From the NCBI GenBank assembly GCA_964016885.1, contig OZ024741.1, positions 405,604,001 through 405,668,000 on the forward strand: 64,000 nucleotides of DNA. Reading direction: 5' to 3'. The stretch is from Eledone cirrhosa (lineage: Eukaryota). The notes beneath the pieces were generated by a model that saw only the letters and a list, made by a program, of their open reading frames with translations, searched no databases and was not told the DNA's origin. Positions 10,990 through 58,350 of this stretch are shown in pieces (positions within the stretch are counted from its first letter, which is position 1; every line of letters starts with the position of its first letter). The position numbers and the translations under genes were made by a program.

Positions 10990-11466
10990 TTATTTTAATA
11001 AATATTTGCTCTACGGTTCTTATATATTTGATATATATCTATCCTTATCGAGCCCTCTTTGGATTTTAGTCTTCAAATTTATTATTATTACTATATATAT
11101 ATATATATATATATATATATATATATATATATATATATATATATGTATGTGTGTGTGTGTGTGTATGTGTGAATGTAGCGAAGATAATACGTCAGCAATG
11201 ACGTGTTCGTCAGAATGTCGTTATGCAGACAGTCAGACATACAGACAGTTATTACAAGGGCTCGACGGCCATCGATAACCGGCGCCTCACACCCCTATAA
11301 CAACAGAAAATTGAAACATAAAAGCAGCAGTTAGTATCTTTAGATCGCAAGGAATATATAAATGCAAGTTTGAAGTCAATCGGAGTAGAAATATGGATTT
11401 GTATAGACTGTGCAAAAATGAGGACACACACACAGGCAACATCAGTTTTATATATATATATATATA

Positions 11467-12134
11467 CATGTGGAAGCTTAGTAAAATCGAAGCTTTGACT
11501 GTGGGCAAGCAAAGTCGAACTACAATATGAATGAGTTAGCAAAGCACTCAATAAGGGTAGGTCCTTAGAGTAACAACATACGTTTAAATAGCTTGACAAT
11601 TGAATATTGTGGTATGCAAAACCTAACATACAATACCAGAGCAACGAAAAAACTAGCAGGTTAAAAAAGATACACCTGGACAAATTAAACGTTATACGTT
11701 TAAAATGTTTCTGTGAAAACGAAATCAAATATCCGGCTTACGTAACAAGCGCGCTCGTGGTATTCCATGATCGAACAGAGGATTCATTTCATCAACAGGA
11801 GTTCCGTTCTTTCCAAAAGCGAGGTGGATTCTAAATGCTGAGGCTATGAGCGAGCTGAACGCACATTTAGTTATCACGTGTTATTTCCAATAAGGGAAGA
11901 AACCCTCGGTTTTGGCGGGTCGATTCGAAGTGTTAAACAAAGGAAATATTATAATTTCCACTAACATTCAGAATGAAGCTCTCAACCAGATGTTATTAAA
12001 CAAACACAAATAATTAACCAATCAACAGAATTGTCTAATTAAATTAATTAGTTAATTATTCAATCTAGGAGAAAATAATACACGTGGAAGCTTAGTAAAA
12101 TCGAAGCTTTGGCTGTGGGCAAGCAAAGTCGAAC
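11467..12134 (-). mobile_element. Non-coding 614-bp tandem unit forming the left arm of a PLE insertion
   Basis: 51-bp direct repeat at 11470 and 12084; TTGAGTGCTTT motif; CACGTG and CCAAT boxes; abuts (TA)n on the left and a PLE ORF fragment on the right. Confidence 0.6.
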
Positions 12135-12950
12135 ATCGTATAAAAATAATAAACAACATCGAAACCGTAATAGACGAGTTACTTGGTATAATGCTCCATT
12201 TAATCTACAAATTAAAGATAATTTACCTAAAATTTTTTTTACTATCCTAGAGAAAAACTTCCCGCCAAACCATAAATACCATCAAATTTTAAATAGATCA
12301 ACGGTCAAATTCTCCTACTCAACAACCAAAAATATACAACAAAATATAAGTGCTTACAATGCATATAAATGTTTTAAAAAAACATGAATATACCACCAAC
12401 ACATCAAACTAACCATAATACTAAAATAAACCACAGCAAACCACCATCTCATTCACATACAACAAGTCGAGAAAATTTCACACCTAATTTGACTAACTCC
12501 CCTGATATAACATTCACGAAATGTTGTAACTGTAGAAACAAAGCAAATTGCCCATTAAAAGGAAATTCCCTTATTAATAACATAGTATATAAATGTAAAA
12601 TTAGCACTAAGGACTCAACCTATTCATATATAGGAGCTACTTCTAACCAATTTAAAGTAAGATTTAATACCCACAAACACAGTTTTAAAAATGCCGCATT
12701 AGCTAATACAACATCCTTAGCTGAAATAATTAATAATTATAGAAAAAAGAATATCGATTATAACCTGACCTGGAGTGTGCTCAAAAAGGCCTCCCCTTAT
12801 CAAAATAATAAATATGAATGTAGATTATGTTCCCAGGAACTTTTTGAAATAATGAAATCTAAGGATATCCTATTAAATAAGCGACAAGAATTAATTATAT
12901 CATGCAATCATAGAATTAGAAAAACTTTCAAATATTATAAACCTAATTAA
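12135..12950 (+). pseudogene. PLE (Hydra-type) linker + GIY-YIG fragment, frameshift near 12380
   Basis: WYNAPF; CNCRNKANCPLKGNS; IVYKC…YIGATSNQFKVRFNTH; CRLCSQE…LNKRQE…CNH; AT-rich 3' UTR follows to about 13760. Confidence 0.88.
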
Positions 12951-14335
12951 TATACACTTATATTTTACAAATTATTATAATTAATTTTTTTTAATTAGTT
13001 AACCTATAATAAATATTCTACTACTAAGAACTGCATAATTTTATTTCCCTTTTACAGCTATCTTTTCCTAAAATTTATACCAATAAGTATACATATAAAC
13101 TATTTTAATTTCCTGTTATGAATCTAAATTCTTGTAATCTATATAAGTTTGTTATTTCTCACTAATACATTTATCCCCCCCCCCCCCCAAAAAAAAAATT
13201 TCCTTCGTTTTTAACAACATTCTTTAATAACATCTAACTCTTATTTATCATATCTATATGAATTAATATAAATGTATCCCTATGAATATACCTATCAATT
13301 AAATTAATTTAATTTCTTTTTATAGATCTAAATTCCTTATGTTTTAAATAAGATTGATATTTTTCACTAACACATTTATCGTAAAATTTTATTCTCCTTA
13401 GATTTTAACATTAGCATTATTCTTTAATAACATCAGATTTTCGTGTACCTTTCACCGGCTTGACCTATTTTCATCCCCAAAGTAATCTTTTCATTCAAAA
13501 TACTCTTTCCATTCAAAACTAAGTCTGCATTCCTCTACTCCTAAATTAAGTTTCTACTACTACTATTCTATCAACTTGACCACTTACTACTTTTCTATTG
13601 GTCAATTCAAAACCTGTTCCCAAACAGACCTATTATATTAAATCTTTGTTGTTTTTTTTTCAATAAACAAATATCATTATTTCTGAAGACAGCATATATA
13701 TGTGTAGGTATGTATATTCCCCCTGATAGTTTGTAAAACTTTTACATAGATCTATATGATATACATACCAACACACACATATATCCTAGAAACGATCGTA
13801 AAATGATGAACTTTTTAATATAAAGAACTTGTTCTTTGTTTTTATTCATTATTTTTATTAATTTATTGTCCTCCGCTGTTCGCTGTTTTGAATATTCAAA
13901 ACAACGAACAGCTGAGGAAACGTTTCGCACCTTTCCGACAGACAGCCTCCCCCCCCCCCAACCCCAACCCCCAGTTGATGGATGTGAATCCGAAATATAT
14001 AGGGACAATTAAATCTCTCCCAAGGTAACTCTATTTCGTGTTATTATTTTTATTTTTATCCTTTACGCTCTTTCCTACATTCTTCTACACGCTACAGTCT
14101 TCTACACGCCACACATCTCAACGTACACCCACTTACATCTTTCTCTCCACCACCGGATCTTGTTACCCGGAGATTTATCCATCTGCATTGTCAAGGCTTC
14201 CAAACGACTTAAATAAATTTACCTTATTATTCCACAATGCTTCAAGCAAACTTCAATACTCTCATATATATATATATATATATATATATATATATATAAT
14301 ATAAGATCAAAAGATGGTTAAAGGAGTTCCATGTA

Positions 14336-14401
14336 TTTTATTATGCGCATTTCAAAAACAAACATCATCATGCAATAATATTTGTGTTTTCATCAGATAA
14401 A
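14336..14401 (-). ncRNA. Type I hammerhead ribozyme motif
   Basis: Reverse complement of 15395-15461. Confidence 0.8.
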
Positions 14402-15394
14402 CAGGAGAACATGATATGAAGGCTAAAAAACACTTGTGGATAGTGCAGTTTTAAATCAACATATGAAAAGTGGTTTTAGATTGATGTGTGATATTGGGAA
14501 AAATATTTTATTTAGAGAGGGGGTGGGTGGAAAGGATGAAAAAGGGGAGGAGATGAGAGGGAGAGATGGGTGATAGAGAGAAAGAGATAGTTTTTATAAC
14601 TGAGAGAAGATATATTGTTTTACATAGAGAGGTTGAAAACCGTTGGAAGATAATGTATAAATTAAAAGAATTTGAAAATTAACGAAGGGAAGATATGTAC
14701 GAGGAACAAATATATTTTATTTAGGGAGGGGGGGAGGATGAAAAAAGGGGGAGGAGATGAGAGTGAAGGTGGAGAGGGAGAGATGGGTGATAGAGAGAAA
14801 GAGATAGTTTTTATAACTGAGAAAAAGATATATTGTTTTACATAGAGAGGTTGAGAACCGTTGGAAGATAATGTATAAATTAAAAGAATTTGAAAATTAA
14901 CGAAGGGAATTTATGTATGAAGATAGAGAGAAAAAATAATAATTGTGGATGAATATTCTAACGTCAAAAAAAGTGTATGTTGATAAGTATTGTGGCAATT
15001 TCAAAATTAACGAAGAGAAAAAATTATTAAGGTTTGTGTGTAGAAGGATTTGAGAAAAATAATGTGAAGTTAAAGTTTGTATATTGAAGGAATTGATAAT
15101 ATGAGCGAATAAAGAGTTAATATGTATTAAGAATGAGTTCGTTGATGGGGAGAAAAAAATAATAAATTAAGGATGAAATTGAGATTAAAATGTTTTATGA
15201 TAGAGAGAAAAAATAATAATAATTGCGGATGAATATTCTAACGTCAAAAAAACAAATGTATATGTTATGTATATACATTTGTTATATATTATGTATATAT
15301 TATGTATATATCACACATAAAACCACTTTTCATATGTTGATTTAAAACTGCACTATCCACAAGTGTTTTTTAGCCTTCATATCATGTTCTCCTG

Positions 15395-15461
15395 TTTTAT
15401 CTGATGAAAACACAAATATTATTGCATGATGATGTTTGTTTTTGAAATGCGCATAATAAGA
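15395..15461 (+). ncRNA. Type I hammerhead ribozyme motif (palindromic stem III)
   Basis: TTTTAT-CTGATGA-stem II-GAAA-TGCGCA-TA-ATAAGA. Confidence 0.85.
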
Positions 15462-57064: not shown

Positions 57065-57503
57065 TCTATTCTCGTTTAAGTTTCCAGGCAAAGCGGGGAC
57101 TCTGGAAACTTATTAAAAAATAATTCAGTGGATAGGAAATAGCAAAGCGTGGACTGAATTCCTAGCCATTGAGAAAATCACTGCCTCTGCGTCAGTGGCA
57201 AATTCAAAAAGAATCAATCACGTGACATCGAGGTCAATCAGTGGAAAGTTTGCTAATAAGACAGCGGCCTGCCTACTACCATAGCAGCAGTCATGGCCAA
57301 TATTGCTCGACAAATAATTTGGAGATAATTATAAAGAATTAATATCTAGTAACATATATATACATACAGATGCATATCAATGCTAGCAAATATATAGGTT
57401 TTGTCTTAGTAACATTGTGGTTCAATGCATGGGGTTGCAGAACAATGATATGAGAGACGTAAAATAAGAAAATTATAAAATTAACTTACTTACTAAAATA
57501 TCA

Positions 57504-57583
57504 CTTCCAACTAATTAGTTTCTGGAATGGAGTAAATATATTTTTCGAAGAAGGTATAGAGAAACATTCCGTCGTCAGGGAAG
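57504..57583 (-). ncRNA. Type I hammerhead, second copy
   Basis: Same core as 56985-57064; differences confined to the distal part of stem II. Confidence 0.88.
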
Positions 57584-57686
57584 TCTATTCTCGTTTAAGT
57601 TTCCAGGCAAAGCGGGGACTCTGGAAACTTATTAAAAAATAATTCAGTGGATAGGAAATAGCAAAGCGTGGACTGAATTCCTAGCC

Positions 57687-57740
57687 TGTTATTAATTCTG
57701 GCAATATTACACAAATATGACCCTCCCCAAGTATAACAAT
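57687..57740 (+). mobile_element. 54-bp 3' end of the 23411/33454 PLE type
   Basis: TGTTATTAATTCTGGCAATATTACACAAATATGACCCTCCCCAAGTATAACAAT matches 25153-25206. Confidence 0.9.
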
Positions 57741-57767
57741 ATATATATATATATATATATATAATAT

Positions 57768-58350
57768 AATGAAATGACAGGAGGCTGGATTTGTGTAAAT
57801 CCTTGAAAGGTTTATTATACTATGATAATTTCAATGACCGGGTTCCGTATGAATCCGGTGATATCATCAGGTATTCGAAATATAATACGTGAATGTAATA
57901 GATAAAATCCATGGGGATGAAAATCGAGGGCCCGAGGGCGACCGCTATTCTGTTCCTTCAACCTGTTCCTTCAACCTCAGCCGGTCGCCCTCGAGGGCGA
58001 CCGGCTGAGGTTGAAGGAACAGAATAGCGGTCGCCCTCGGGCCCTCGATTTTCAGCCCCATGAATTTTATCTATTACATTCACGTATTATATTTCGAATA
58101 CCTGATGATATCACCGGATTCATACGGAACCCGGTCATTGAAATTATCATAGTATAATAAACCTTTCAAGGATTTACACAAATCCAGCCTCCTGTCATTT
58201 CATTATAATATTTAACTCCGTAATAGCACCACCAACTACAAAAACAAAGACGGTTGAACTGCCTTACGTTGAGTACTCTCTATATTATTGCATTACGATT
58301 GACCATACGGAATATACCAGCTCTATACAGTGGTAAACCCCAAACCTGAA
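57768..58350. mobile_element. Two-armed inverted PLE-end insertion with HHRs at 57817-57874 (-) and 58098-58155 (+)
   Basis: Fold-back centred at about 57992; ATAC-CTGATGA…ACCGG/CCGGT…GAAA-TTATCA-TA-GTAT; right tail of about 140 nt. Confidence 0.88.

Follow-up and report, generated by a model that had tools for sequence, protein, structure and literature searches.

The 64,000-nt stretch of the Eledone cirrhosa genome analyzed here (contig OZ024741.1, positions 405,604,001 to 405,668,000; referred to below as the window) contains fragments of several Penelope-like elements (PLEs), among them elements of Hydra type, in a genome of 3.0 Gb that is rich in (TA)n. We denote the families by letters (A, B, C and so on), which are labels coined in the present analysis. 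Family C has an open reading frame (ORF) for a reverse transcriptase (RT) and endonuclease, preceded by a hammerhead ribozyme core and two short hairpins (Table 1). An initial annotation of the window had pointed to a short GAG-containing motif in the tails of its PLEs and proposed that it is a conserved RNA cis-element. We find that the motif forms the 3′ side of a bulged hairpin, that full-length elements carry two such hairpins between the hammerhead and the ATG, and that the two stand at a fixed distance from the two classes of insertion end.

A bulged hairpin contains the motif

All 18 strings listed by the initial annotation were found at their places, to within 2 nt and with minus-strand coordinates being low ends, and a further copy lies at 47524 on the minus strand. 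The enrichment over background that it had expected is also found: a stricter version of the motif has 21 sites in the window compared to a mean of 5.6 (maximum 13) in 40 local shuffles, and a 1-Mb genome sample made up of 100 evenly spaced 10-kb stretches holds 106 sites, compared to 58 when shuffled and 42 when reversed.

The hairpin has the layout 5′-RYTC-stem-loop-stem-TN-GARY-RCY, where the 5′ partner is the complement of the four bases containing the GAG, and where the inner stem closes just before a two-base bulge (U/T followed by any base) and the GARY. With at least three inner pairs demanded, 48 of the 106 sites in the 1-Mb sample pair around a 2-nt bulge, while bulges of 0, 1, 3 and 4 nt give 4, 6, 15 and 5 of the same sites, and among control sites 1 of the 58 shuffled ones and 3 of the 42 reversed ones pair. 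Within the window 15 of 21 motif sites pair, compared to 0.2 in shuffles, and 17 of the 18 sites listed earlier, which had been picked regardless of pairing, fold as the hairpin. Because the families are related, these pairing counts are not independent events. The outer stems show compensatory changes (ACTC/GAGT, GCTC/GAGC and GTTC/GAAC), and the inner stems are unrelated in sequence. A set of 39 distinct hairpins has A-T (13 cases) or G-C (26) as the first outer pair and C-G (38) or T-A (one) as the second. Directly 3′ of the stem, the first base is R in 35 hairpins and the next base is C in 35; the T that opens the bulge in all 39 was required by the finder. Inner stems have 1–7 pairs and loops span 3–63 nt.

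We rejected the reading of the motif as a linear word, as its 5′ strand covaries with it and absorbs the spread in distance. What stood of the original proposal is thus a conserved element, in the form of a base-paired, bulged hairpin that is present twice. We also rejected the possibility that the hairpin is part of the hammerhead: GAA precedes it in none of the 39 cases, and the hairpins lie about 50 nt or more 3′ of the ribozyme. The pair ACTC/GAGT does occur as hammerhead stem III in several Hydra ribozymes. Six loci searched for a known Rfam family gave no match at gathering score, and the window as a whole gave sub-threshold Rfam matches only, which were driven by microsatellites. Two of three variant sites in the initial annotation (40246 and 57417) form hairpins as well; the third, at 19226, lacks the 5′ partner strand, is the one listed site that does not fold, and has no relative in the 1-Mb sample.

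Two hairpins and two classes of end

Short ends of the elements fall before hairpin 1 and long ends before hairpin 2, so that the single cis-element per tail first described gives way to two, the second of which sets the long end. For family C, hairpin 2 begins 91 nt after hairpin 1; the main copy has its short end near 53539, in the downstream tandem copy, and the inverted arm has its long end near 47455, 6–9 nt before hairpin 2. From this layout a second hairpin was predicted behind the long end of other families, and genome pattern searches were run that specified the long end and a 5′ RCWC only. For family D, 9 of 20 loci were examined (those left out were CA/TA repeats or overlaps), and all nine continue into a full hairpin, five of them into a Hydra-type start. 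For family A, 3 of 20 loci were examined, all three with a second hairpin, two of these with a C.A mismatch in the outer stem. For family B, 6 of 15 loci were examined, with five hairpins intact and one with a broken inner pair. A Hydra-type start after the second hairpin was found in all three families. For family H none of eight pattern matches continued past the long end. A protein search added families I, M, N and E to those with two hairpins.

The spacing between the hairpins, i.e., the tail, is 67–172 nt. The distance from hairpin 2 to the ATG varies between 20 and 90 nt, whereas that from hairpin 2 to the end is steady. All bulged second hairpins that were read have a GCTC outer strand and a C-G first inner pair; first hairpins vary, with ACTC, GCTC or GTTC outside and T-A or C-G as first inner pair. 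This suggests that the two sites are not equivalent.

Distance from hairpin to insertion end

The initial annotation had placed the GAG 22–27 nt or 45–65 nt beyond the short end. These distances are as measured, but the anchor was wrong, as it is the base of the hairpin that lies about 5–9 nt from the end. The GAG sits 15–56 nt after the hairpin 5′ strand, and the two distance classes arose because loop lengths differ (a 32-nt loop at 11008 and a 40-nt loop at 58215), the distance of 65 nt being due to the 40-nt loop of family F. The distance peak that had been anticipated was seen in a junction scan made independently of family labels. Of 836 (TA)n junctions of any repeat, the 381 with a continuing copy were scanned from −40 to +80, and 64 of 132 hairpin matches begin at +6 to +9, with none at +24 to +53.

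For the nine two-hairpin families we mapped 141 TA-abutting ends in the window and the 1-Mb sample, omitting reference R, which has a TA repeat as its upstream flank. The TA tract starts 6–9 nt before a hairpin in 103 of these ends; the interval in which the crossover may lie overlaps the stretch 3–10 nt ahead of a hairpin in 118 ends and includes position 6 in 77. A held-out set of 20 stretches placed 38 of 38 TA-followed ends at −1 to 13 nt by the coarser measure of alignment ends. TA-followed ends away from any hairpin number 7 of 158, and the family G site at 11541 yielded no TA-abutting end.

Of the 39 hairpins, 37 have A or T at linker position −5 and 35 at position −6. The element and the TA tract share a modal overlap that averages 2.6 nt (24 sites), compared to 1.0 nt elsewhere and 1.6 nt at random linker positions (resampling P 0.003 for the latter comparison). 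The A/T patch and the excess TA microhomology lend support to the earlier suggestion of pairing with nicked (TA)n. Ends within one family shift among neighboring TA-like patches. Long ends of family A (L235–L254) terminate in AC, and they often adjoin (CA)n or repeats led by AC instead of pure (TA)n; since the search pattern selected for the (CA)n-abutting loci, a frequency is not to be read from them.

Head-to-head insertions

The window and the 1-Mb sample hold 69 head-to-head pairs, with family P left out of the count as simple-repeat matches. Fifty pairs were classifiable, and all 50 combine one short and one long arm. The held-out set added 17 pairs, 14 of them classifiable, of which 13 are short plus long and one is short-short. 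In 43 compact pairs the pivot is shared within 10 nt in 23, the long arm starts inside the tail in 10 (in five of these no more than 7 nt from hairpin 1), nine have a short arm that extends further 5′, and one has a long arm that does so. The short arm thus holds sequence missing from the long arm in 19 of 43 pairs and the reverse is seen in one. Fold-back copying of one arm into the other was considered as a general route and rejected, because each arm can hold sequence that the other lacks; as neither arm is generally a fold-back copy, both would have been primed on the element. The asymmetry of the arms fits a single RNA on which the downstream polymerase trails, while two RNAs on a protein dimer may be an alternative arrangement of the templates.

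The pivots of compact insertions cluster 60–67, 66–74 and 74 nt 5′ of hairpin 1 in families D, E and I, respectively, and these clusters are in or at the hammerhead region and not randomly spread. The family D hammerhead has a variant core, CTGAGAA or TTGAGAA (17590–17660 and L215), with a long stem II that includes a putative TATA-like stretch.

Clade of the elements

Judged by their RWR/RWK, DKT and CxCx5C motifs, the families that carry the hairpin belong to the Hydra clade of PLEs, for which RWK-like, DKT and CxCx5C motifs are given as traits in the covered part of PMC8557442. RWR or RWK is present near the N terminus in all eight families with an N-terminal read, family A having RWI; DKG is replaced by DKT, as SDKT, in family C, the sole family read that far; and the CxCx5C linker, which in this clade precedes a C-terminal endonuclease of GIY-YIG type, is found in three ORFs of the window (CNCRDRSKC, CNCRNRADC and CNCRNKANC). 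A CCHH motif was not evident in the family C protein when read by eye with no reference endonuclease alignment. The family C ORF in the window is frameshifted, and intact natural copies of this type, encoding 738–745 aa, occur elsewhere in the same genome.

The eight N-terminal proteins are 31–51% identical and all have the Hydra-clade motifs, and the carrier families are consequently not the unrelated ones they had been taken for. Patches shared between tails extend 38 nt at most, and A, B, C and F align over 17–38 nt; apart from these short patches, the flanks are indeed not alignable, as described at the outset. From these comparisons we conclude that the motif has been kept by descent within one clade while the surrounding sequence turned over. 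A Pfam search with 11 proteins gave one weak RVT_1 match, to a Neptune-like protein, and no related solved structure was found for the Hydra protein.

The hammerhead core pattern was matched in families A, B, C, E and M (in family C also in the downstream copy) and in metagenome loci; at six loci the hammerheads gave no Rfam match at gathering score. Insertion into (TA)n is seen in that 158 of 224 3′ alignment ends in the window and the 1-Mb sample are followed by TA. The repeat period of family C, about 4.0 kb, exceeds the <3 kb typical of the clade because of a long 3′ untranslated region (UTR). An ORF at 36363 with a Cx4CxxC linker was called Neptune-like on that motif alone, and the tails that follow this and other non-Hydra ORFs lack the hairpin motif.

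Other animals and a Neptune-like family

Outside this genome we considered 54 metagenome loci, fetched with one Hydra relative, and six published consensuses. Eleven loci include the N terminus and upstream DNA (the rearranged L172 was left out), and eight of these, in about seven families, have two hairpins within 150 nt before the ORF. Of the others, two have one hairpin, both seeming to be cut off upstream, and one has none; control windows inside ORFs contained a hairpin in 1 of 143 cases. Ends 4–10 nt before a hairpin were seen by eye in L151, L150/L165, L133/L134, L139 and L166. The sea-cucumber consensus Hydra-1_Ajap (PMC8557442 File S7) starts with two hairpins before the ATG, and Hydra-2_Ajap and the coral Hydra-2_Amil have one at the end, again by eye. 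The hairpin L162:1560 resembles the one in Hydra-2_Amil and does not count as an independent case.

A Neptune-like family (33455–33507 on the minus strand, 25200–25252, L044, L107 and L336–L338) has a stem-bulge-stem of its own, with a GTTT/AAAC outer stem, a 2-nt 3′ bulge and three inner pairs that covary between two subfamilies. It sits 6–7 nt after the short end, with the tail inside the ORF. In tandem arrays of this family a different, unbulged stem follows the long end, and head-to-head pairs are short plus long in 12 of 12 classifiable cases. A search for non-TA junctions gave no continuing copy. The stem hints that the hairpin code is clade-specific yet general.

The long end of the Neptune-like family is joined directly to 5′-truncated copies of a SINE-like repeat that is common in the window (of the type at 46905–47092) in 13 of 28 loci, namely L281, L283, L287, L289, L290, L291, L293, L295–L297, L301, L302 and L305; the 28 loci were selected for a non-TA continuation, and some joins have 5-nt microhomology. 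The joins are either SINE 5′ junctions beside the element or the product of template switching, and in the latter case the SINE would use the Neptune-like polymerase.

Table 1. Hairpins and associated features of the Hydra-type elements in the window
Feature	Position	Strand	Remark
Hydra-clade PLE RT and endonuclease ORF, family C	49664..51879	+	RWR, DKT and CxCx5C motifs; this copy frameshifted
Hammerhead core (CTGATGA ... GAAA), family C, 5′ of hairpin 1	49429..49468	+	read from sequence
Family C hairpin 1 (ACTC/GAGT, 3 inner pairs, TC bulge)	49534..49553	+	family short end 5–7 nt before
Family C hairpin 2 (GCTC/GAGC, 2 inner pairs, TT bulge)	49625..49642	+	22 nt before ATG
Family C hairpin 1 in tail of inverted long arm	47517..47536	-	not in the initial annotation
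Family A hairpin 1 (long arm)	15506..15530	+	short inverted arm ends near 14290
Family A hairpin 1	39466..39490	+	short inverted arm ends near 39151
Family B hairpin 1	17165..17189	+	
Family D hairpin 1 (long arm)	58494..58517	+	short arm ends 58378
Family D hairpin 1	17322..17345	-	
Family D hairpin 1	25735..25758	-	
Family D hairpin 1	54604..54627	-	
Family E hairpin 1 (inner stem with G.T pairs)	40646..40664	-	
Family E hairpin 1	55520..55538	-	
Family F hairpin 1, 40-nt loop	58215..58274	+	
Family I hairpin 1 (GCTC/GAGC), 32-nt loop	11008..11053	+	tail of Hydra-type ORF fragment 8887–9988
Family G hairpin, 5 inner pairs	11546..11571	-	no short end in sample
Family H hairpin, outer G.T pair in this copy	55731..55766	-	no copy continuing past long end
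CATTGAGCCAC variant, hairpin GCTC/GAGC, 23-nt loop	40215..40253	+	
CATTGAACCAC variant, compensated outer stem GTTC/GAAC	57420..57443	-	short end 4–8 nt before
CATTGAACCAC without 5′ partner strand	19224..19234	+	truncated or chance

Additional motif sites at 32294–32320 (plus strand) and 32502–32524 (minus strand) fold as hairpins and have no mapped end, and the motif at 18027 (18005–18035, plus strand) belongs to a family M copy with a damaged 5′ strand. Unrelated to the hairpins are the decayed LINE-like ORF pieces on the minus strand at 59066–64000 and two inverted-orientation copies of a non-LTR 3′ fragment at 29874–30180 and 43325–43630.

A proposed role in priming and its alternatives

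What the sequences themselves show is a paired structure that occurs twice and lies at a fixed distance from both classes of end, with TA microhomology at the junctions, and inverted insertions that combine one short and one long end, neither arm being a copy of its partner. We consider it likely that the twin hairpins are RNA docking sites which place the RT for internal priming on nicked (TA)n. The RT protein would bind each hairpin via the bulge, the invariant TC/GA pairs and the unpaired RC, and the 3′-OH of the nicked TA strand would pair with 1–5 nt of the A/U linker that immediately precedes the stem. Copying would then begin about 6–7 nt 5′ of the stem and run away from the hairpin, which is why the hairpin would be left out of that end. 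Both nicked strands would be primed, one per hairpin, probably on one RNA (twin priming), with the downstream polymerase trailing the upstream one, and the two cDNAs would then be joined head to head, the optional tail being the stretch between the hairpins. The order of all these steps is one that we infer. More tentatively, the PLE RT could work as a pair on one RNA, with one protomer docked on each 20–25-nt hairpin, a structure shared by elements from cnidarians, echinoderms and the present genome, and with each protomer priming one strand of a staggered (TA)n cut. If correct, a twin-hairpin code would account for the tail and for the long/short inverted insertions across the group, and would constitute a portable tag that sets the start of copying.

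We favor that the hairpins act as RNA. In 40 reference hairpins we counted 12 G.T compared to 2 A.C, with singleton decay variants at 9 compared to 10 (m143b was left out of the count, being mispaired by the automatic rule), and upon folding, stem probability exceeds 0.5 in 29 of 41 sense strands and in 19 of 41 antisense strands. Several observations weigh against this reading or against the model as a whole. Some of the reference hairpins came from a G.T-tolerant finder, which biases the count; a symmetric search gave 8 G.T and 14 A.C, with about 25 chance matches expected; and an A.C mismatch is found in two of three family A hairpin-2 copies and one of six family B copies. As naked RNA the stem has a probability below 0.5 in 12 of 41 hairpins, including that of the commonest family, D (0.02), and D1, A1, F1, B2 and N1 fold poorly. 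Several hairpins have a single inner pair, hairpin 2 of family E is unbulged (GCAC/GTGC), and short ends of this family lie at 12–17 nt in four of six cases, so the spacing is not strict. In 23 of 43 compact pairs one and the same stretch is copied into the two arms, which one RNA permits only with strand displacement, and three of the six published Hydra consensuses have an imperfect match or none by eye. Of the original term RNA cis-element, the fixed-distance cis-element is borne out by the genomic evidence, while the strand tests are mixed and lean toward RNA.

The mixed strand tests are relevant for an alternative that we regard as improbable, namely that the hairpins act in DNA, as cDNA or an extruded donor strand, where the endonuclease binds and cuts about 6–7 nt away, the ends being resolution cuts. 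Craig 2021 attributes the tail to endonuclease-mediated resolution (PMC8557442, covered part), and the endonuclease of Drosophila virilis required the tail in order to cleave (cited in the covered part of PMC11167929). The core AGYRCT is furthermore its own reverse complement, like dimeric DNA sites, the A.C cases become G.T on the antisense strand, and nearly half of the antisense strands fold at the above threshold. The G.T excess in the reference hairpins over the even decay variants speaks for RNA, however, and the excess of junction TA microhomology suits priming, as the halting of long arms at hairpin 1 suits a collision of two primers; loops of 3–63 nt are also tolerated. With clearly less probability, the hairpins could mark RNA 3′ ends by processing or termination about 6 nt before the stem, followed by ordinary end-primed target-primed reverse transcription. 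This would predict the same genomic ends and the same microhomology, and PMC11167929 mentions RNA-seq read ends at the two sites. Yet initiation was internal in vitro for the one element tested (PMC11167929), the long RNA must run through hairpin 1 intact, and two classes of RNA end alone do not account for the joining of a short with a long end in 63 of 64 inverted pairs.

It is, finally, very improbable that the hairpins serve transcription or translation while ends merely land on the nearest TA-like patch. The hairpins do lie in the 5′ leader, with hairpin 2 close to the ATG, the linkers are A/T-rich, and ends shift between neighboring TA patches within a family. But the UTRs hold a great many TA-like patches that go unused, the few TA-followed ends off a hairpin have been noted above, both hairpins share the same spacing to their ends, and it is the distance to the ATG, not that to the end, which varies widely. 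We therefore retain internal priming guided by the twin RNA hairpins as the preferred explanation.

Comparison with known systems

How PLE 3′ ends are chosen, and why the tail is on one arm of inverted insertions, has been an open question for two decades. The elements described here resemble the Hydra clade as presented in the covered part of PMC8557442 in their terminal-repeat hammerhead, (TA)n targets, tandem and inverted units and optional one-end tail, which is there said to be usually at one end, probably from endonuclease resolution. They differ from that description in tail length (67–172 nt compared to 30–40 nt) and in the size of family C, and no hairpin or tail signal is described in that part. 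The covered parts of PMC3846280, PMC4209133 and a 2026 retrozyme preprint mention no such hairpin, and no description was found in the literature searched, which did not extend to most subscription papers, Repbase/Dfam notes, the GenBank supplement of the green anole element PAc and picture-only supplements. The clade is thus known, and the twin-hairpin signal in it appears to be previously unreported.

PAc, a Poseidon element of the green anole, uses two internal start sites that bound the tail in vitro, and both target strands are cut and extended, with a dimer predicted (PMC11167929). The two end or start sites bounding an optional tail and the AT-rich targets are thus shared, whereas PAc starts inside an AC-rich stem-loop within the ORF and Hydra sites precede the ATG (PMC11167929). 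PAc is also said to use no target homology, in contrast to the A/T linker ends with excess TA microhomology found here (PMC11167929). That study mapped two start sites and, in the part covered, defined no conserved, repeated cis-element; the PAc RNA segment in its Fig. S1 has no RYTC/GARY bulged stem, which counts against the model proposed here (PMC11167929). A covarying element of 20–25 nt that is present twice makes mutation, compensation and relocation directly assayable, and the hairpins also provide an annotation rule for the ends and start codons of Hydra elements.

Twin priming is known from another group of retroelements. In LINE-1 two target strands prime on one RNA, leaving the 5′ part inverted; the first cDNA halts at the internal primer, and the second site is any chance microhomology. 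The Hydra elements would instead have each priming site set by a conserved hairpin, and their arms frequently overlap. In the boundary and recognition elements of telomerase RNA, the R2 3′ UTR and hepadnavirus epsilon, a stem bound by protein lies at a set distance from the template position and determines where copying begins or halts. Among retroelements, PLE polymerases are the nearest relatives of telomerase, and how they grip their RNA consequently bears on the origins of telomerase RNA, and the twin-hairpin code, if true, would be the simplest model for anchoring a telomerase-related polymerase on its RNA. The likeness is one of functional description only: copying is halted in telomerase by a boundary stem located 5′ of the template, whereas the Hydra hairpin lies 3′ of the first base copied.

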